Shown piece by piece: positions 49,716 through 63,106 of a stretch of 63,106 nt of DNA. The position numbers and the translations under genes are program-made. This DNA is from Podospora anserina (taxonomy: Eukaryota), in the NCBI GenBank assembly GCA_017654855.1, contig CM030337.1, positions 4,278,001 to 4,341,106 of the forward strand. Direction: 5' to 3'. Position 1 is the stretch's first letter; the number at the start of each line of letters is the position of its first letter. The notes under the pieces were generated by a model, which searched no databases, had not been told where the DNA came from, and saw nothing but the letters and a program-made list of their open reading frames with translations.

Positions 49716-49816
49716 GTTATTCTCCGATGGATTGTAGTACAATCCGTTGAAAAGCGCACCAAAAAAAAGGCCCCACTTTAGAAACAGGGGGTAGGATCCG
49801 TTGAAGAATTCAGTTG

Positions 49817-52800
49817 TACGATCCGATGGGATTTCTCCCATCAATATAAAAAGCAAAGACACTATTAGAATTGCCTGAACGAGCTGCATAGAATGGTATA
49901 GGGTGCATTATCGTACGAGCGGTGTGGAATTGTGAATGGTAGATATGAAGTTAGGTATGAGTGTGCTAGTAATGTACGTAGATAGTAAAGTGAGGTTGGG
50001 TAATAGAAGAGTAAGTTGTACGATCCGATGGGATTTCTCCCATCAAAATAAAAAGCAAAGATACCATTAAAAACAACTAAACGAACTGCATAAAATAGTA
50101 TAAGGTGCATTATCGTACGAGCGGTGTAGAATTATAAGCAAAAGATATAAAGTTAGGTATAAGTATGCTGGTAATACACGTGGATAGTAAAGTAAGGTTG
50201 GGTAATAGAAGGGTAAGTTATACGATCCGATGGGATTTCTCCCGTCAAAATAAAAAGTAAAAATAGCATTAGAATCGCCTAAACGAGCTATACAGAATAG
50301 TATAAGGTATATTATTATACGAGCGGTATAAAATTATAAATAAAAAATATAAAGTTAGGTATAAGTATACTAGTAATGTACGTAGATAGTAAAGTAAGGT
50401 TGAGTAATGGAAGGGTAAGTTATACGATCCGATGGGATTTCTCCCATCAATATAAAAAGTAAAGATATTATTAAAATTACTTAAACGAGTTATATAAAAT
50501 AGTATAGGGTATATTATCGTACGAGCGGTATAGAATTATAAATAGTAGATATAAAGTTAGGTATAAATATGCTAATAATGCACGTAAATAGTAAAGTGAG
50601 GTTGGGTAATAGAAGAGTAAGTTATACGATCCGATGGGATTTCTCCCATTAAAATAAAAAGTAAAGATACTATTAGAAATAACTAAACGAGCTATATAGA
50701 ATAGTATAAGGTACATTATCGTACGAGCGGTATAAAATTATAAATAAAAGATATAAAGTTAGGTATAAGTATGTTAGTAATGTACGTGGATAGTAAAGTA
50801 AGGTTAGGTAATGGAAGGGTAAGTTATACGATCCGATAGGATTTCTCCCGTTAAAATAAAAAATAAAGATAGTATTAGAATCGCCTGGACGAGCTACATA
50901 GAATAGTATAAGGTATATTATCGTACGAGCAGTATAGAATTATAAATAAAAAATATAAAGTTAAGTATAAATATGTTAGTAATATACGTAGATAGTAAAG
51001 TAAGGTTAGGTAATAAAAAAGTAAGTTATATGATCCGATAAGATTTCTTCCGTTAAAATAAAAAGTAAAGATAGTATTAAAATTGCTTAAACGAGCTATA
51101 TAGAATAGTATAAGGTATATTATCGTACGAGCGGTATAGAATTATAAGTAAAAAATATAAAGTTAGGTATAAGTATATTAGTAATGTACGTAGATAGTAA
51201 AGTAAGGTTAAGTAATAGAAAGGTAAGTTGTATAATCCGATAGGATTTCTCCCATTAATATAAAAAGTAAAGATATTATTAGAATTGCTTAAACGAGCTA
51301 TATAGAATAGTATAAAGTATATTATTATACGAGCGGTATAGAATTATAAATAATAAATATAAAGTTAGATATAAGTGTGTTAGTAATGTACGTAAATAGT
51401 AAAGTGAGGTTAGGTAATAGAAAAGTAAGTTATACGATCCGATAGGATTTCTCCTATTAAAATAAAAAACAAAAATACTATTAAAAATAATTAAACGAGC
51501 TATATAGAATAGTATAAGGTATATTATTGTACGAGCGGTATAGAATTATAAATAAAAGATATAAAGTTAGGTATAAGTATACTAGTAATATACGTGGATA
51601 GTAAAGTAAGGTTAAGTAATAGAAAGGTAAGTTATACGATCCGATAGGATTTCTTCTATTAAAATAAAAAGTAAAGATAGTATTAAAATCGCCTGGACGA
51701 GCTATATAGAATAGTATAAAGTATATTATTATACGAGCGGTATAGAATTATAAATAAAAGATATAAAGTTAGGTATAAGTATATTAGTAATATACGTAGA
51801 TAGTAAAGTAAGGTTGGGTAATGGAAAGGTAAGTTATACGATCCGATAGGATTTCTCCCGTTAAAATAAAAAATAAAGATAATATTAGAATCGCCTGGAC
51901 GAGCTGCACAGAATGGTATAAGGTATATTATTATACGAGCGGTATAGAATTATAAATAAAAGATATAAAGTTAGGTATAAGTATATTAGTAATATACGTA
52001 AATAGTAAAGTAAGGTTAAGTAATAGAAAGGTAAATTATACGATCCGATAGGATTTCTCCCGTTAAAATAAAAAGTAAAGATAGTATTAGAATTACCTAA
52101 ACGAGCTGCATAAAATAGTATAAAGTATATTATCGTACGAGCGGTATGGAATTATAAGTAAAAAATATAAAGTTAGGTATAAGTATACTAGTAATATACG
52201 TAGATAGTAAAGTAAGGTTAGGTAATGGAAGGGTAAGTTATACGATCCGATAGGATTTCTCCCGTTAAAATAAAAAATAAAGATAGTATTAGAATCGCTT
52301 AAACGAGCTATATAAAATAATATAAGGTGTATTATCGTATAAGCGGTATAGAATTATAAGTAAAAGATATAAAGTTAGGTATAAGTATATTAATAATATA
52401 CGTAGATAGTAAAGTAAGGTTAGGTAATAGAAGGGTAAGTTATACGATCCGATAGGATTTCTCCCGTTAAAATAAAAAGTAAAAATAATATTAGAATTGC
52501 CTGAACGAGCTGTATAGAATAGTATAAGGTATATTATTATACGAACGGTATAAAATTATAAATAAAAAATATAAAGTTAGGTATAAGTATATTAATAATA
52601 TACGTAGATAGTAAAGTAAGGTTAAGTAATAGAAAAGTAAATTATACGATCCAATAAGATTTCTCCTATTAATATAAAAAGTAAAGATATTATTAAAATT
52701 ACCTAAACGAGCTATATAGAATAATATAGGGTATATTATCGTACGAACAGTATGGAATTATAAATAATAAATATAAAGTTAAGTATAAGTATATTAATAA

Positions 52801-53185
52801 TATACGTAAATAGTAAAGTAAAGTTAAGTAATAAAAAAGTAAATTATATAATCCGATAGGATTTTTTCTATTAAAATAAAAAGTAAAGATACTATTAGAA
52901 ATAATTAAACGAGTTATATAGAATAGTATAAAATATATTATTATACGAGCGGTATAGAATTATAAATAAAAAATATAAAGTTAGGTATAAGTATATTAGT
53001 AATATACGTAAATAGTAAAGTAAAGTTAAATAATAGAAAGGTAAATTATATAATCCGATAGGATTTCTCCCATCAATATAAAAAGCAAAAACACTATTAA
53101 AATTACTTAAACGAGCTATATAAAATAATATAAAGTATATTATTATACGAGCGGTATAGAATTATAAATAAAAAATATAAAATTA
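49817..53185 (+). repeat. Tandem array of about 16.7 copies of a 202-bp unit
   Basis: The anchor TACGATCCGAT (or its RIP variant) recurs at 49817, 50019, 50221, 50423, 50625, 50827 and so on to 53049, at an exact 202-bp spacing. Confidence 0.97.
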
Positions 53186-53212
53186 ATCGACTTTTATTAT
53201 CGTACGACTTAT

Positions 53213-53600
53213 TTAATTATCGGAATTACTAATAACTATAGGCTCCTAGCTCTCTTCCGCCGCTCCTTTATTTCCCTTACTTTCTTCCTCGGCTTTAGTA
53301 CCGCTTTATTTAACGGTATAGAAATTATATTTACTACTATAATCCCTTTACTTATAGTTACTACAAGCACCACCCTAGTACCTATCTGTCGTACGATAAT
53401 CCTTAAACGGCCCTCTATTAGGCTTACTAATACAGGCAATATAGGGAAAGGTAGCCACTAAACCACGGCTCTAAATTAAAACTATATTTAAGTAGCTCGA
53501 ACGAATTAATACTTTAGCCCCCTTTACTTTGCCGGAAACGTATTCGATATCGGCCGATAGTAGAGCCGAAATTATTTATTATATTTCTTATATATTTATT
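53213..53600 (-). pseudogene. DUF3716-family Cys-rich protein relic, RIP-inactivated (boundaries approximate)
   Basis: RIP-reverted frame: RSSYLN(A)VLI(Q)SRGLVATFP(C).AC...RGPFKD(C)......GGAC(G)N(C)K(W)RD(H)..K(C), matching the DUF3716 pattern as I recall it. Confidence 0.7.
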
Positions 53601-54074
53601 AATTTAAATATTATTATACGAGAAAAATATATATTAATATTAATATAAAAACTATTTATTAGGCTCCTAATATAAAACTAATTAGTATCGATAACCTTAT
53701 ACGAACTACGGATAGCAAAGATAAAAACTATCTTAAATATTTATTTAAAAGTTAATTAATTTATACGATTAAAAGTTTATTAAAAAAGGGCCTTAATTAA
53801 AATTAAACCTATACCTCTAAAAACTTTAAAACCGTATATACCGCTCAGTTATTATACCTTAAAATCTTTATATTACCTTTTGGGCGATAATACTAACAAA
53901 CGATAAATCTATAAACCCCGTATAAAAATTATACAATACTTTTTTACTATTATATAATATTCCATTATACAATATTTATATTATTCTATTATATAATATT
54001 TATATTATTCTATTATACGATAAGCCTATTATATAACCGTCCGGGAATTAAATATCTATATCTTTTAATTAAAC

Positions 54075-54975
54075 CTTATCGTACGGCACCCAAACGGCTT
54101 AATCGGAATAACAAAGCTATATTACACAGCTAGCCTATTAAGGGATTTAAAAAAAAAAGCCTGCTTTACAGACCCAGACCCCGGCAACCGCACGCCACTA
54201 CCTTCCTGCCGAGGCATACCCTGACTATCGTACGGGACTAGCAACTATACGCCACTACCTTCCTGCCGAAGCATGCCCTAACTATCGTACGGCACCCAGA
54301 CGCTTTAATCGAAATAATAACGCTTTATTGTAAAGCTAGCCTGTCGAGGGATTTAGAAAAAAAGGTCCGCTTTTAAAGACCCAGATCCAGCAACCGCACC
54401 CCACTACCTTCCTGCCCAAGCATGCCCTGACTATTGTACGGTACCCAGACGCCTTAATCGGAATAATAAAGCTTTATTACATAGCTGGGTAGTCGAGGTA
54501 GTTAAAAGAAATAGTCCCAGATCCTCGCAGCCGCACGCCACTACCTTCGCGCCCAGGCGAGCCTTACCTACCGTACAGGACCTAAACGCCTAGATCGGAA
54601 TAATAAGGCTCTGTTATATAGCTGGGTAGTCGAGGTAGTTAGAAGAAATAGTCCCAGATCCTCGCAACCGCACGCTACTACCTTCGTGCCCAGGCGAGCC
54701 TTACCTACCGTACGGGACCTAGACGCCTGGATCGGAATAATAAGGCTCTGTTGCACAGCTGGCCTGTCGAGGGATTTGGAAGAAAAGGCCTGCTTTGGAA
54801 GAAAAGGTCTGCTTTTGCAGACCCAAACCCCGGCAACCGCACGCCACTGCCTTCCTGCCCAGGCACGCCCTGACTATCGTATGGGACTGGCAACCGCACC
54901 CTACTGCCTTCCTGCCCAAGCACGCCCTGACTATCGTACGGGACCTAGACCCCGGTAACCGTACGCTACTGCCCT
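54075..54975 (+). repeat. GC-rich complex tandem repeat (~57-bp core in 57-170-bp units) upstream of the TLH gene
   Basis: Variants of GCAACCGCACGCCACTACCTTCCTGCC...CTGACTATCGTACGG start at about 54184, 54241, 54390, 54527, 54664, 54833, 54890 and 54954. Confidence 0.9.
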
Positions 54976-55106
54976 TATCTACTTACACGTAACCCACTCC
55001 ACCTTTAATAGGGTATCCTTTTCTAAAAAAACTTACTAATAAACTTTAATTTAATAATATCTCGTATCGTACATAACTATTATATTACCATTAATACTAT
55101 ACTAAA

Positions 55107-58100
55107 ATAAACCCTTTTATTTATATTTCCCGCTTTTAAATTTTTATTTATAGGAAATATAAAATAATTATTCTTATAAATAAAGTGCCTACCTATCTTT
55201 ATACGTCCTATAAAGATATTATAACTATAAATAAACTAAATATCGTATAAGAGTATAACAATTTACTAACGGTCTTTCGAAAACAATAAGACTTAATAAA
55301 CTTTATACTTCCTTCTACAGTAATTAATTTAATTCTAAAATTAAAAAAACCTTCTTTTAATAAATTAAAGTACGATACCTACGCTTATATTGTATAGATT
55401 AAAAGGGCGATATAAAAATATTACTATATAAAATATAATTAAATTAACCCTAATATAAAAGGGGGAAATATTAAAGTAGCTTAATAATATTAGGGACTTT
55501 AAATAATTAGAATATATTACTAACGGTTTTTTAAAAGCCGGTTAGTTACTAGATATTTTAAAGTACGATTAACGGAGCCGGTAGCCGGAAGTCCTAACCT
55601 CGTATAATAAACCTAAAAATAAAAAAAGTAGTTTATAGTATTTTATCGTACGATTAACTTAACCCTTTAATAAATATTAATAATTATTATAGTAAGTAAG
55701 GAACGATTAGCTTTAAATCCTTAACTAAATAGGATAGGTTAGGTATACTACTTTAGGTTTTTAAACTAATAAACTATATATCGTTTAACCTTTCTTAACT
55801 TAAACGAAGGATAGTTAGACAGTAAAAATCTAATTACTTTTATAGTCCTCTATAAAATTTAAGAAAGGATTAATTAAGTTATTACTAATATAATAATAAG
55901 GTTATCGTCCGATAAAATCGGTTACCCGGTTTTATTCGAAATTAATAAAAAAACGATCGACTAAAAACCCTCTAAGCCTTTTAATAGTAGTAGCCTAGTC
56001 CTTCGTATAATATAGAAATACTTTTTTATTTAGAAAAGGATTTTTAGGTATATTTGCCGTATATAGAGTTAGGATTAATAAAATCGGTTACCATATAATT
56101 TAAACGCTAGTTAGATAAAAAGTTTAGAGATTATTATATAAATAGTATAAAAGTTTTATTATAGTAACGATAAGGCCGAAGGAAAGTTATTAAATTAAAT
56201 ATTTATCGATTTTTTTATTAGACTTTTAAATTATCCTCTCCTATAGTCGTCGTACGAAAGCACCCTCCTCTCTGCCCTAGCTACTATAGCCCTAAAGGAT
56301 AATAGAAAGTAATATACCCCGTCCGACTTTACACTATTCCTTTTTACTATCGTTACCCTCGGTAGGGCCTTTATCGTACGACACTTACTTTACGAGTTTA
56401 CCCGGCTAAAAGAGGTAAGTAAAAAGCTTAGTCTCTTTAATATCGTCCGCTCTAAAGTCTCGAGGTTTATAACTAAAGTTTACTAAAGTAATTACCCTAT
56501 ACCGATAAACTAGGTTTTAAAGGCTCGTACGTATAATATAATTATTAATAGCTCTATAATATCCGAAAGTAAATTTACGTTTAACGGTATTACTATTATA
56601 TATTAGGATATCTCTATTATTATTAACGTTTTAACTAAAATAATATATATTTTAATTAATAAAATTAATCGTATAATCTAGGACCTAACTTTCTTATTAA
56701 TATTGGGCATTTCTATCCCGGAAATTCCCTAGAATAATTTAAAGGATAATATAAGCTAGGATAAAATTAGGTATTCCTTTTTTTCCGATCCTAGTAATAT
56801 ATATTTCCGGCGGCCTTAAAATTAAATTGTATAACGAATTACCGAAAATCCTTCCCTTATTTAACTTTAGTTAAAAAAATAGGGTAATAATTATATTTAT
56901 TATACAACCGAAGCCCAGTCGTACCTAGACCGGGTAAATAGGCTCCGATCCCTCCTTTTTATCGCTATTTATTTATTAATAAGGTTACCGCCTCGTACGA
57001 TAGAGCTTTTAAGTATAAGGTTCTATAATATACCGGTTAAAGGGTTTAAAAATATATTTATTTAATATAGTATAATCGTAATCGTACTATAGTATAATAA
57101 AGGGTTAAGCTATACCGGATAATTAAAAATTATTTATCGCTATCTCCTAAAGGAGCTAGGTATAAGTATCGTATAATACCTTTAACTTATTTACCCCTTT
57201 TACCTTAATTTATAATACTAGTTTAACGGAGCCTCTACCCCTACCCTATTCTTTTAGGATTCTAAATTTATACGGCTATTTAAAGATATTAAATTTAAGG
57301 ATACCGGCTAAAGTATATCCTCCGGTAACCCAGAAAATTAATAGTCGTTTAATAAAGTTAGCCGGGCCCTTATATCGTATATAGAGCGCTACTTCGGATC
57401 TAAAATCAGTATTCGGCCCTAACGTTATATTACCGTAAATATTACTCGCTAATTTCTTATTTATTTTATTCTAAAGAGTTTATTAGAAAATAAAATAGTA
57501 CCGTCGTCCGATAATTATAACGGGTCTGATTTTAATTACGACGAGGATAACGAAAATAAAGGCTTTAATCTTATTATTACGGCCTAAACCGGTTACTCGG
57601 AAAGGATTATTAGAATAGTATATACTAAGTATATTAACTAAGGAAGGTTAGGGTATACCGTACGATAATAGTAGTTTATGAAGCTTAGTTAATTATAGTA
57701 CTAGCTATTTACCTTCGGCTCGGACGATACTTTGACCCTCTAGTAGACCAAAACTAACCTCTTCCAGAACCAACGTTATACCGTACGGCAGGGACGACTC
57801 CGGTACCTAGCTAGCCTTAATATTAAGGGCTATTTCCGTTAGATATTTAATAACTTTAATATTAGTTTTAAAGGTAACTAGCGCGAGGTATTAACTTTTA
57901 TTGTACGAGGGTTTAGCCCAATCCTTTATATTACCGGGATAGGTAATAGAAAAAGTATTATCTTCTTACTCCTAATTTATTATACGAAGGACGGGGTTAT
58001 TATTATTATTTTTCCTTTTATAGTACTATAAAAGAATATAGCCCGGCGTTATAAAGAATTAGGGATTAGTTATACGATTTAGAGTTTTAAAGAGGTTTCG

Positions 58101-59813
58101 ATTAACTAGGTTATTTTTATAACCCCGGAGACCTTTAGTACTAAAACGTTTAAGACCTTCGTTAATAAGCTTAACGTATAATAATAGCTTAACCGGATTA
58201 TTTTTAATAAGTATTATACTATTCTAGACTCGTCGTACGAATTTCGACCACTCTTCCGGCAAATCGGTTAATATATAGCTTTAATCGGGATATAATTACT
58301 CTTCCTAATAGCTACCCTCCTACCTCGGGACTTACTAGGGTTTTATAAAAGTTTATATTTTAATTCGTAAAAGGTAACTATCGTACGGTTTATTATATTC
58401 CGGTCGAATATTAAATACTTTATAGTTAAGTATAGAGATTAAAAGGCCGTCCTCTAAGCCCTTTATTAGTAAGTTAACTCTATCGGTAACCGTAATCCTC
58501 GTACGAGGGTTATTATTTATTCCCCTTCAATCGATTTTACTAAAGTTATTTTATACTTATTTAAGTGTCCGGCATACTATAGTAATATAGAAGAGAGTAT
58601 TTAGAAAAATAAGATTGTACGAGGGTGGATTAAAAGCGGTGGTACTATTATAGTAACGTCTGCCCTAGGTACTAATATCGATATTCCAGATATACGATAT
58701 GTTTTTTATACCGGGCTTCTAAAGATATTAAGGGACTTTATTTAGGAAAGCGGATAAGCCGGGAGAGACGGAGTAAAGGCCGAATCGGTAATTTTTTTTA
58801 TAAAGAATTGTACGGCCGGAAAGTTAATTACCGGAATTATAGATTTAGCGTTATTAAAAATAAAGTATTTCGTATAGAATAGTAACTTATATTATAAGAT
58901 TATTTTTTCCCGGGTAATAGATAGGCGGATAGATAGGGCCGGGTATAAGGAGGGCGAGGAGTTATATAGGTTATATAAAGAGCGGTTTTTTAATATAGTT
59001 CGTACGAAGTTATTCCGAATAGAGGAGGAGGCTTATAGGTTTTATTATACGGTAATCCTAGAGGCTATAAATAAATAGGTTTTCGATATAGTTATTAATA
59101 AAGAAAAGTAACGTTAAGTTATTATAAAAAAGCAGGAAAGGAGGAAAAATATTATATAAAACGTAGAGGTTATAATTAAAGTATTTTTATAGTTACGGGT
59201 AAACTATATAGTTTACTTTTTAAAGTATACCGAGTTTAAGGAGGAATATATACGGTACGAATTTTAGTAATCGACGGCTTACGGATTTTACGGTATTATA
59301 CGAAATACTTTATAACTAACTAAACTTTTTAGTAGATTAAAAAAGCTATATATATTAAAGGGTTTATTTAAGGATAAATAGGCTTAAAAAAAAAGTGTAG
59401 AGTTAAGCGATTAGTTTTTAAGGGTTAGGGGTTTAAGTTTAAATACCGTACGAAAATTAAACGGAGGTTTCTAGGGGTATAATAAGTATAGGGTTCTAAA
59501 AAGGTTTTATAGGCGGTGGGAACCGTTAAAGGAAAACGAGGGTTCGTTTTATAAGTCTAGGAAGGATTATTCGTACGGGATAAAATTAATAATGGGGTTA
59601 ATTATAGTTAAAAAAAGAGGTTTGGGTTAGTTTAAAGAAGATGTTGAGGCACTTTATTGGAAATACGGGGTTATATTAGATAACGAAATAGGGGTAGTAC
59701 GTCGGTTACTCGTACGGGTAAAAGTATCGGATATTAAGTGTTCTGTAATAGTATTAGTTTAGGTTAAGGTGTGGGAGGAAATTCGTACGAGATATCCAAA
59801 GTTAATAGAGTAA
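55107..59813 (+). pseudogene. Telomere-linked RecQ helicase (TLH) relic: DUF3505 Zn-finger + tyrosine-recombinase-like domain + RecQ helicase + Zn-binding domain, RIP-inactivated
   Basis: All sampled motifs fall in one frame: (C)(Q)RFF...YF(E)V; NP(W)L.R(T)G(W); F(R)GN(Q)REV; G(T)G.(G)KS at 57936-57956; (DECH) at 58206-58217; (T)ATL(P)P; TSALG..IDIPDIR; (Q)ESG(R)AGRDG at 58743-58772; (C)..GEEL(C).L(C). Oriented toward the telomere. Confidence 0.9.
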
Positions 59814-59870
59814 TACTACGGTTTTTTTATTTAAAAATATATATATATATATATATTTTATAAATAAAAG

Positions 59871-60228
59871 TAAAAATAAAGAAAAATATTATATTATAAT
59901 AGTAGAAGAATATATAAAATTAATTATAATATTATAAAGATATATATATAATAAGAGCTTGCTAGTAAGCTATACTATATATAGGAAAAAAAAAAGATAT
60001 TATAGGCTCGTAAGCCATATAATAAGTACCGGAACGGCCTGATCAGAGGGCTAGAATAGCCTATACACGTATAATATATAAAATATAAAAAAAGAAAAGT
60101 CGATATCGTATTTAAAATAAAATATTAAAAATAAACTATTTATATATATAACCTATAAACCCCCGAATTCTTTAAAAAGTTTATATTATTATTTATACTT
60201 TTAAAAATATAGCCGAACTTTATATAAA
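59871..60228 (-). mobile_element. Heavily RIP-mutated solo LTR related to the 42596-42957 LTR
   Basis: The core TATAGGCTCGTAAGCCATATAATAAGTACCGGAACGGCCTGATCAGAGGGCTAGAAT aligns with TATGGGCTCGCAGGCCACATAATAAGCACCGGATTGGCCTGATCAGAGGGCCAGAAT; ends are approximate. Confidence 0.75.
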
Positions 60229-60589
60229 TATATTTATAAAACTTTAAATATACTATTTTACGAAAAAATAATAATATTTTTTATAATAAAAAGAAATTAA
60301 TAAATATAAAGAGACTTTTTATTAATATTTTTAAATAGTATAAAAAAATTAAATAATTAATAAAGAAAAAAAGAAAAGTAATTAAATAAATAAGGGTATA
60401 ATATATAGTAAAAAAAAATTATTAATTAAATAAATTTAAAATATAAAATTTATTATTCTTTATAAATTAAATAAATAAAGTTAGATTAATATATATATAT
60501 ATATATAAATATTAATACTTAATATATATAAACGAAAAAAAACTATATATTATAATATAAAAATTTAAAGAATATATAATTATTATATA

Positions 60590-63018
60590 TAAGTAGGAAA
60601 GTACCCGAACCGCTATATATATATATAAGGATATATAAAGACTAACTACTATATATTAGTAAGAGGGAACACGAATTACTATACGTATATATAAAACTAT
60701 ATAAAAGCTAATAACTATATATAAGTATAAATGTATTAAACCCGCTATATATACGTAAAAAAAAAGTATTAACCGCTATATATATAGTAAATAAGGTGCT
60801 AACCGCTATATAAATATAGAAAGGAATATTAACCGGTATATATATATAGAAAAAAGTATTAACCGGTATATATATATAGAAAAAAGTATTAAGCGCTATA
60901 TATACGTAAGGAAAAGTATTAACCGCTATATATATAGTAATAAGAGTACTAACCGCTATATATATATAAAAAAAAGTATTAACCGCTATATATATATAAG
61001 AATACATTAAAACTAATTATAATATAAATATAAGAAGGAATAGTAACCCGTATATATATATGGAAAGAAGTACTAACCGATATATATATATAAAAAATAC
61101 GTTAAAACTAACCGCTATATAGATATAAAAGGAATAGTAACCCGTATCTATATATAGAAAAAGTGCTAACCGCTATATAAATATAGAAAAAGGAATAATA
61201 ACCCGTATATATATATAGAAAGAAATGCTAACCGCTATATATATATAAGGATACGTTAAAACTAACCGCTATAGAAATATAAAAAGGAATAGTAACCCGT
61301 ATATATATATGGAAAAAAGTATTAACCGCGATATATATAGATAAAGATACGTTAAAACTAACCGCTATAAAAATATAAAAAGGAAGAGTAACCCGTATAT
61401 ATATGTGAAAAGAAGTGCTAACCGCTATATATATATATAAAAATACGTTAAAACTAACCGCTATATAAATATAAAAAGGAATAGTAACCCGTATATATAT
61501 GTGGAAAGAAGCGCTAACCGCTATATATATATATAAAGATTTATTAAAACTTATTACTATAAATATATAGAAAGAAATACTAACCGCTATATAGATATAG
61601 TAAATAGTGTTAACCACTATAAATATATATAAAAGATTTACCGCTTTATATATAGCAAAGAATACTAACCGGTATATATATAAATAAAAAAGTATTAATT
61701 GTTATATATAAATAAAAAAGACTATTAAGGGTAAAAATATATATATATATATATTAATTAAAATTAACCGCTATATAAATATAGAAAGGAATATAAACTA
61801 GTATATATATATGGAAAAAGGGGCCAACCATATATATATATAAGGATACGTTAAAACTAACCGCTATAGAAATATAAAAAGGAATAGTAACCCGTATATA
61901 TATATAGAAAAAATATTAACCGCGATATATATATAAGGGTAGGTTAAAACTAACCGCTATAGAAATATAGAAAGGAATAGTAACCCGTATATATATATAG
62001 AAAAAAGTGTTAACCGCGATATATATATAAGGGTAGGTTAAACTAACCGCTATAGAAATATAGAAAGGAATAGTAATCCGTATATATAAAAAGGAAAAAG
62101 TGTTAACCGCTATTATAAATATAGAAAGGAATATTAACTTATATATATATATAAAAGAAAATGCTAACGGCTATAAATATATAAAAAAGAAATTTTAATT
62201 ATTATAAATATATAGAAAGATCCGTTAAGATTAACCGCTATAAATATATGGAAAAAGAAGTACTAACCGCTATATATATATAGAAAAGAAGTGCTGACCG
62301 CTATATATATATAGAAAAAATTACTAACCACTAAAATATATATAAAAGATACGTTAAAACTAAAAGCGCTATCTATATAGTAAAAAAGTATTAAACCGCT
62401 ATATATATATATATATAAAAAGTATATAAAAATCAACTGCTATATATATATCTAAAGATATATTAACCGATATATATATATATAAAAGAAATACTTACCG
62501 CTATATATAAAAAAAAAAATATTAAATGCAATATATATATATATAATAAATAAAAACTAAGCGCTCGATATATAGTATAAGAAATACTAAACGCTATATT
62601 TATAGTAAAAAGCATGCTAACCGCTATATATATATAATAATATATTAAGACTAACCGCTATAAATATATTAAAAGAACTATTAATAGTAAAAAGCATAAT
62701 AACTGCTATATATATATAATAATATATTAAGACTAAGCGCTATAAATATATTAAAAAAAGTGCTAACAGCAAAAAGCATACTAAACGCTATATATATATA
62801 ATATTATGTTAAAACTAACCGCTATAAATATATTAAAAAAAGTACCGACAAAAAAAAGCATACCAACCGCTATATATATATAATAATATATTAAAACTAA
62901 CCGCTATAAATATATTAAAAAAAGTACCGACAGAAAAAAGCATACCAACCGCTGTATATATATAATGATATGATACGACTAACCGCTATGATTATGTTAA
63001 AGGAAGTGCTGCCCGCTA
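60590..63018 (+). repeat. AT-rich subtelomeric minisatellite with ~30-bp units and a TAACCGCTATA / TAACCCGTATA core
   Basis: Dozens of TAACCGCTATATATATA-type units with higher-order patterning. Confidence 0.92.
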
Positions 63019-63106
63019 TAGGGTTAGGGTTAGGGTTAGGGTTAGGGTTAGGGTTAGGGTTAGGGTTAGGGTTAGGGTTAGGGTTAGGAGTTAGGGTTAG
63101 GGTTAG
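63019..63106 (+). repeat. Telomere (TTAGGG)n
   Basis: About 14 TTAGGG repeats run to the end of the sequence, with one TTAGGAG variant. Confidence 0.99.

Follow-up and report, generated by a model that had tools for sequence, protein, structure and literature searches.

Papers from 1998 onwards report genes for telomere-linked RecQ helicases (TLHs) at the chromosome ends of fungi and choanoflagellates, and the available text of 10.1101/2024.02.27.582403 assigns them no determined role. In that text and in the available part of a 2022 preprint (10.1101/2022.03.07.483234), TLHs are telomere-adjacent and carry two C2H2-type zinc motifs, a 'TLH domain' of ~250 amino acids (aa) and a RecQ core. 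The former credits the name of the domain to Rehmeyer et al. 2009 and treats the domain as a conserved feature only, and the latter lists it without a function. Our study concerns a TLH copy in 63,106 nucleotides of Podospora anserina DNA (the window), a chromosome end that closes in telomere repeat. An earlier note, made from the letters of this DNA, had read the copy as the remains of a zinc-finger/tyrosine-recombinase/helicase fusion with an uncharacterised recombinase domain. The domain had in fact been named in print, and the note was right to the extent that the available text of 10.1101/2024.02.27.582403 gives neither function nor fold. Analysis of intact relatives indicates that the TLH domain has a tyrosine-recombinase fold, as predicted by modelling, and near-invariant Arg, Lys, Arg, His and Tyr residues. 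The evidence for this assignment is structural prediction and conservation; it is not biochemical. What it would add to the named domain is a divergent tyrosine-recombinase type in a new fusion with RecQ. No link between TLHs and tyrosine recombinases was found in the literature, with subscription journals, supplements and database annotations outside reach. Among the matches listed (titles and starts of abstracts) for literature pairing tyrosine recombinases with RecQ, none was on TLH.

Comparison by tblastn with the intact homologues P0001 and P0030-P0033 keeps the window copy in a single frame (frame 3) throughout, and no frameshift was detected. Its translation, with stops read through as X, is colinear with P0001, an intact homologue of 1554 aa (blastp, E = 2e-79, ~1040 columns). 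It has been degraded by repeat-induced point mutation (RIP), and its parts are as follows.

55107-59150, forward strand: RIP-degraded TLH pseudogene (tblastn, blastp, RIP indices and stop counts).
55107-55475, forward strand: relic of an N-terminal OrsD/DUF3505-type zinc-finger region; residues 1-122 of the intact relative P0031 align here (tblastn, E 4.9e-4).
56190-56900, forward strand: relic of a helical region upstream of the catalytic domain, colinear with P0001 392-640; a 515-aa structural model described below is confident here.
56904-57719, forward strand: relic of the 'TLH domain', a predicted tyrosine-recombinase-like catalytic domain; the read-through is matched by a profile of 32 intact relatives' domains (hmmsearch, E = 1.1e-38), and AlphaFold2 and Foldseek were applied to intact relatives.
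57885-58772, forward strand: relic of a RecQ-type helicase core (DEAD and Helicase_C), colinear with these two domains of P0001.

A RecQ core, an upstream TLH domain, N-terminal zinc motifs and an adjacent telomere were thus all found, as in the TLH family. Between 55500 and 59400, 93 of 1300 codons are in-frame stops (54 TAA, 39 TAG and no TGA). TAA and TAG stops without indels are the expected pattern, since RIP gives C-to-T and G-to-A changes at CpA/TpG. The RIP indices of 55000-60000 are 1.54 for TpA/ApT and 0.12 for (CpA+TpG)/(ApC+GpT), compared with 0.58 and 1.32 in positions 1-36000. RIP has thus left the window copy dead, and functional lessons come from its intact relatives. In these, the proposed order was borne out: an OrsD/DUF3505 zinc finger is followed by a helical region, the recombinase-like domain and the RecQ helicase. 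Their Pfam families are OrsD (at residues 4-110 in P0031), DEAD, Helicase_C and ResIII. In the window copy, Pfam gave no match to OrsD/DUF3505 and none to the 256-aa domain segment; the read-through as a whole gave only a weak Helicase_C match (E 0.0036, residues 995-1091).

The candidate catalytic residues of the window copy lie within the relic of the TLH domain.

56994-57005, forward strand: box I, with Arg at 56994-56996 (CGT) and Glu at 57003 in R-T-I-E; LPPRTIELL in the window, GQPARxTELL in the family.
57099-57101, forward strand: candidate hairpin Lys (AAA); YNKG in the window, YHKG in the family.
57420-57428, forward strand: stop (TAA, 57420), Arg (CGT, 57423-57425) and Tyr (TAT, 57426), the Arg being the candidate second catalytic Arg; Y/W-R-H in the family.
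57585-57623, forward strand: box II, with a stop (TAA, 57585; Q in the family), T, G, Tyr at 57594-57596 (TAC; H in the family) and, further on, Tyr at 57621-57623 (TAT); LQAGH-x8-Y in the family.

All codons named in the earlier note were found where it had placed them, in the frame of the pseudogene; the coordinate of Glu 57003 was obtained by counting three codons beyond the Arg codon in the translation. The window reads IRP-stop-RYITV around 57420-57428 and A-stop-TGYSERIIRIVY at box II, while the consensus of the relatives is H.TGGQPAR.TELL ... YHKG ... (Y/W)RHIAIAI ... LQAGH-x8-YAR. The candidate nucleophile, Tyr 57621, stands nine residues after the His position at 57594. Most relatives have H where the window has Tyr 57426, and the reversions of RIP that had been assumed, Tyr to His and stop to Gln, give the same residues as are present in relatives. 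A further reversion, from the stop at 57420 to Trp, was only partly upheld: the TAA is there, but relatives carry either Tyr (139) or Trp (103), and Trp is not certain.

Conservation of these residues was assessed in relatives from clusters at 50% identity or less. Of 1.84 billion representatives searched exhaustively with HMMER, 6811 matched at E <= 0.001, 198 of them at E <= 1e-30, and the best 150 were used. Near-complete segments from these and two further relatives gave a set of 107 domains, from which P0058 was left out on account of its triplicated match. The first Arg, the Glu, the Lys and the second Arg were each present in 107/107, the Tyr in 106/107 and the His in 105/107. A wider set was made by adding 120 short fragments from a second search and aligning all sequences to the hidden Markov model of the domain, which yielded 265 domain matches from 272 proteins or fragments. 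Here we counted the first Arg in 238/239, Glu in 234/239, Lys in 236/241, the second Arg in 245/250, His in 240/248 and Tyr in 247/249. The five residues that the earlier note expected to be conserved in intact homologues are thus kept at 97-100%. That note had made conservation and likeness of fold the points on which its reading would fall; both were tested, and the finding survived both. It had also remarked that the first His of the HxxR motif was not evident, and this position, three residues before the second Arg, is not conserved in the relatives either (S76/A44/Q40/L26/R17 among 250 covered sequences).

Some further observations on the relatives were made. Six of the eight sequences without His at box II have Tyr, the change that a C-to-T mutation by RIP would give, and these six share it with the window copy. 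Because of this, some database 'proteins' of the family are probably translated from RIP-affected copies. P0058 (1560 aa) matches the TLH-domain query in three pieces (529-693, 836-1004 and 1099-1220), which points to an internal duplication of part of the protein or to an error in the assembly of the gene model. Past the helicase core, the C-terminal ~250 residues of P0001 and P0030-P0179 contain Cys/His clusters (CRR..LD, C...E.CD.C, C..C....H....C and C..C..PQ..C) that are probably further zinc-binding modules; P0001 has only a sub-threshold RecQ_Zn_bind match (E 0.01). Cluster names of the relatives are generic, for example 'superfamily II DNA helicase RecQ'.

Two AlphaFold2 models were built. 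The domain model used a 32-row alignment with the P0125 segment as its first row, and had a predicted local distance difference test score (pLDDT) of 83.2 and a predicted template modelling score (pTM) of 0.81. The second model covered 515 aa (P0001 385-899) with a 56-row alignment and had a pLDDT of 86.8 and a pTM of 0.82. In the comparison with known structures that the earlier note had called for, Foldseek placed tyrosine recombinases exclusively at ranks 1-41 of the PDB matches of the domain model (XerH, Cre, XerA, staphylococcal integrase, IntI and XerD) and at ranks 1-33 of those of the 515-aa model. For the domain model, the probability over these 41 ranks ran from 1.00 to 0.44, and the first unrelated match had 0.03. 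The best PDB E-values were 2.8e-3 for XerH (5jk0, probability 1.00) and 3.3e-3 for Cre (1drg). Three BFVD matches reached E <= 1e-3 (best 2.1e-4); among the first 41, 13 rows were nameless, two were 'uncharacterized' and the named matches were integrase, Tyr-recombinase or DNA_BRE_C. Alignments of the 515-aa model with full-length Cre and XerH spanned 340-434 columns and reached past the catalytic domain into the upstream helices, with a root-mean-square deviation (rmsd) above 19 Å. The helical region whose relic lies at 56190-56900 may, in terms of this model, correspond to the core-binding domain of recombinases.

The order of elements in the domain model is a long helix, the first Arg before a short helix, three strands, a long helix, two helices, an acidic loop and the last helices. 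Strand 61-68, the second of the three-strand sheet, is followed by a turn that holds the Lys and then by strand 79-84. The second Arg lies four residues into helix 154-169, and the His and Tyr are on the C-terminal helices after the acidic loop, which is of low confidence. This placement agrees with the layout of a recombinase catalytic domain.

Several results weigh against the assignment. In sequence comparisons, Phage_integrase, DUF3435, NDC10_II, ResT-TelK_cat and Topoisom_I gave no Pfam match at E <= 10 in P0001 and 32 domain segments, and the profile of the domain gave no match at E <= 10 to PDB sequences (HMMER). Comparison by hhalign with Cre, lambda Int and a 98-sequence lambda-Int-like profile, the last in local and global modes, gave non-significant probabilities of 0.07-0.44%. 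The first His of HxxR, the second His of the recombinase set, is not conserved in the 250 covered sequences. The domain has 12 invariant positions (e.g. Asn46, Arg53, Pro86, Tyr96, Pro102 and Ser232) and 13 near-invariant ones, and five residues picked from some 25 conserved ones are no strong evidence alone. As to structure, no PDB match of either model reached E <= 1e-3, template modelling scores (TM-scores) in Foldseek were 0.37-0.40 for the domain model and about 0.2 for the 515-aa model, and the rmsd of the domain model was about 9-10 Å or more. Confidence is lowest, in both models, in the segment with the His and Tyr (pLDDT below 50 at 460-475 of the 515-aa model), and the agreement of the five residues lies in their order and secondary-structure placement along the chain. 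The dead window copy says nothing about activity, and a search of 53000-63106 for inverted repeats or candidate recombination sites flanking the gene gave only AT-rich low-complexity pairs, which is a weak test because RIP would have blurred genuine sites.

With these points in mind, we considered whether the likeness of motifs arose by chance in a helical domain of another kind, the predicted fold being wrong. The uniformly non-significant sequence-profile comparisons and TM-scores of about 0.4 would fit such an accident, and some 25 conserved positions allow many subsets of five residues. In contrast, two models with different alignments and first sequences, compared with two structure libraries, all rank recombinases at the top, with a Foldseek probability of up to 1.00 and three BFVD matches at E <= 1e-3. 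The residues also fall on the expected secondary-structure elements, and the His-Tyr spacing is exactly 9. We therefore regard a chance resemblance as very improbable.

Other sequence searches bear on the domain less directly. In the ~800 residues between the zinc finger and the helicase of intact relatives, Pfam found nothing. At E <= 10, the 32 domain segments gave scattered chance families only, the commonest being Peptidase_S8 with two members. A profile from the full-length alignment met mainly RecQ and DEAD helicases in the PDB and is uninformative on the TLH domain. Neither a bridging family nor a clear stand-alone form was present among the best 120 of 554 near-length matches to the domain profile; these 120 were all TLH fragments, and their only Pfam families were those of the helicase (DEAD/ResIII). 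In the best local hhalign alignments, which were not significant, the 32-sequence profile placed the His and Tyr on Cre W315 and Y324, and the 107-sequence profile placed the Arg and Glu on Cre R173 and E176, each in exact register. Look-alikes with a family name from a protein language model were only NDC10_II, Phage_integrase, ResT-TelK_cat and DUF3435 (0.84-0.86), and these are leads only.

The order Arg, Lys, Arg, His, Tyr proposed in the earlier note was recovered, as was its His-Tyr distance. The R-K, K-R, R-H and H-Y intervals of the TLH domain are 35/88/43/9, compared with 23/76/22/9 in lambda Int and 28/91/23/9 in Cre, where Trp takes the place of His (residues verified). The last interval is equal in all three. 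The third is about 20 residues longer in TLHs because a variable acidic loop lies there. A different enzyme could be proposed from this pattern, namely a swivel of the type IB topoisomerase kind, which nicks DNA, lets it rotate and reseals it, but neither exchanges strands at specific sites nor confers mobility. It would relieve torsion or dissolve structures arising from the RecQ motor at telomeres, as a single-chain equivalent of RecQ-Top3 or reverse gyrase. The R-K-R-H-Y pentad is characteristic of poxvirus and eukaryotic topoisomerase IB, as opposed to the hexad of recombinases, and the conserved set in TLHs lacks the first His of HxxR. An R-to-H spacing of ~43, longer than in Cre or lambda Int, agrees with a swivel, as does the finding of no recombination sites or terminal repeats around the window gene, and fusion to a helicase would suit the management of topology. 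Nevertheless, the acidic loop accounts for the long spacing, and recombinases come first in Foldseek. Human topoisomerase I had rank 38 and a probability of 0.07 with the 515-aa model and is not among the matches listed for the domain model, and Topoisom_I gave no Pfam match at E <= 10 in the 32 domain segments. Based on these observations, a swivel seems unlikely.

It could also be argued that the recombinase fold now serves only as a DNA- or protein-binding module that tethers the helicase to subtelomeric DNA, comparable to Ndc10/Cbf2, DUF3504 and the SPbeta repressor. Non-catalytic, domesticated recombinase folds do exist (DUF3504 and Cbf2/Ndc10 in the available text of PMC3212892; MrpR and SroF in partly available sources). 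NDC10_II is the best named look-alike by features (0.86, a lead only), and the missing first His of HxxR would agree with such a role. However, the domesticated cases DUF3504 and Cbf2/Ndc10 became binding modules with loss of their catalytic residues, as described in the available text of PMC3212892. In TLHs, each of the five residues Arg, Lys, Arg, His and Tyr is retained in 97-100% of proteins drawn from clusters of 50% identity or less, and it is difficult to account for this unless chemistry is under selection. A purely binding role is thus quite improbable. Since the five near-invariant residues have been kept along with the fold, and recombinase-fold binding modules such as these have lost them, the TLH domain of intact relatives is, as far as models can tell, a real and probably catalytic recombinase-type domain fused to RecQ.

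Taken together, the best explanation, to which we give a probability of roughly 60%, is that TLHs join a tyrosine-recombinase-type DNA breaking-rejoining domain to a RecQ helicase; they would cut and rejoin DNA at chromosome ends, with the movement of a subtelomeric element as their likeliest purpose. A nick-and-unwind enzyme is plausible because a RecQ motor is fused to a recombinase-type domain. In such an enzyme, the Tyr would attack a DNA phosphodiester, which would produce a covalent 3'-phosphotyrosyl link and leave a 5'-OH. The attached 3'-to-5' RecQ motor would then unwind from or towards the nick, so that one enzyme could carry out cleavage, unwinding and rejoining at chromosome ends. 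Least secure in this proposal is the purpose, namely that the subtelomeric element that bears the TLH gene would be copied or moved between ends, as a selfish end-associated element. The suggestion of the earlier note that the fusion could mobilise or exchange chromosome ends is likewise hypothetical. Mobilisation of this kind is the role that we prefer, tentatively, and we think it more probably wrong than right. The multicopy, end-linked and strain-variable distribution of TLHs, described for Botrytis in the available text of 10.1101/2022.03.07.483234, and the targeting by RIP seen in the window fit a selfish element and are no proof of one. In its strongest form, the proposal holds that TLH proteins are active recombinase-helicases of an unrecognised class of eukaryotic chromosome-end mobile elements, in which a nick with a 3'-phosphotyrosyl link is made, RecQ peels or reels a strand and the element copies itself between telomere-adjacent sites. 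This appears doubtful. An element of this kind might, in addition, allow ends to be rebuilt without telomerase.

The recombinase interpretation would replace a 'RecQ of unknown purpose' with a hypothesis that can be tested by mutation, in which a tyrosine that cuts and rejoins DNA is coupled to a helicase. If true, it would explain why TLH genes are multicopy, end-linked, strain-variable and targeted by RIP, and a recombinase-helicase fusion would join the known means of cutting and moving eukaryotic DNA. It would also bear on the plasticity of subtelomeres in plant-pathogenic fungi and on telomerase-independent maintenance of ends.

The remainder of this chromosome end is made up largely of repeats. 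From ~43 kb onwards, the G+C content is only 18-33%, save for a G+C-rich island at ~54.1-55.0 kb. The telomere begins ~3.9 kb downstream of the pseudogene, and two features found with Tandem Repeats Finder lie on this side.

60715-63001, no strand assigned: degenerate AT-rich tandem arrays with periods of about 30, 61, 82 and 93 bp, ~2.3 kb between the TLH pseudogene and the telomere.
63019-63106, forward strand: telomere repeat (TTAGGG)n, 14.5 copies, reaching the last base of the window.

The core common to units of the 60715-63001 arrays resembles CTAACCGCTATATATATA. Because the CTAACC within it is similar to the C-strand telomere repeat, the array may derive from a telomere-associated repeat that has decayed. 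The island at 54100-54990 stands directly upstream of the start of the pseudogene and has 52% G+C, compared with 26-29% on either side. It contains a 137-bp unit three times (54380-54785) and a 57-bp unit twice (54832-54944), and is apparently far less mutated by RIP, with a (CpA+TpG)/(ApC+GpT) index of 0.79 against 0.12-0.19 around it. Further upstream, ~2 kb from the pseudogene, a tandem array of a 202-bp unit (49812-53185, 16.7 copies, 88% matches by Tandem Repeats Finder) lies in AT-rich, RIP-like DNA.

In comparison with known systems, the window copy shares family and architecture with the published TLHs, such as M. oryzae TLH1, U. maydis UTASa, S. pombe Tlh1/2 and those of F. oxysporum and B. 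cinerea. It differs from the published accounts, as far as their available text goes, in that the fold and catalytic function of the TLH domain are unnamed there; the recombinase interpretation is added by the present analysis. The best structural matches of the domain are XerH, XerA, XerD, Cre, lambda Int and IntI. As in Cre and lambda Int, its candidate catalytic residues come in the order Arg, Lys, Arg, His/Trp and Tyr, the last two at a distance of nine, and the surroundings of box I (G.R..EL) and box II (GH....Y) are common to it and to prokaryotic and phage recombinases generally. It differs from Xer, Cre and Int in that sequence profiles detect no similarity to them, the position three before the second Arg lacks a conserved His, and box II is preceded by an inserted acidic loop of some 20-35 residues. 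Further, the TLH domain is located inside a protein of ~1500 aa, between a zinc finger and a RecQ helicase, and no recombination site was found in the RIP-altered DNA of 53000-63106.

Like Cryptons, Starship captains (DUF3435) and DIRS/Ngaro elements, TLHs occur in fungi in multiple copies, are linked to genome plasticity and are affected by RIP, and DUF3435 is among the look-alikes of the domain (0.84, a lead only). They differ from Cryptons and Starships in having no Pfam match to DUF3435 or Phage_integrase and in adjoining telomeres, not dispersed target sites; movement of TLHs is only hypothesised. A helicase also sets them apart from Cryptons, as the main text of PMC3212892, in the part available, does not use that word.

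Topoisomerase IB and the telomere resolvases ResT/TelK belong to the DNA breaking-rejoining superfamily, as the TLH domain would. The R-K-R-H-Y set without the extra His resembles that of topoisomerase IB; the low Foldseek standing of topoisomerase I (rank 38, probability 0.07) is a difference. ResT-TelK_cat is a look-alike of the domain (0.84, again a lead only). ResT has DNA-unwinding activity, according to the available text of PMC5388405, which is a functional parallel to the pairing of a recombinase with a helicase at DNA ends. In contrast, no resolvase is among the Foldseek matches listed, and the telomere here consists of plain TTAGGG repeats with no hairpin.

Finally, the Rep-Hel protein of Helitrons offers an analogy of design only, with no homology implied: a tyrosine-based DNA-cleaving domain is joined to a helicase in a multicopy element. 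Helitrons use an HUH nuclease, which forms a 5'-phosphotyrosine, and a Pif1-type 5'-to-3' helicase. TLHs would pair a recombinase-type domain, for which a 3'-phosphotyrosine is expected, with a 3'-to-5' RecQ helicase, and would thus combine cleavage and unwinding in the opposite polarity.

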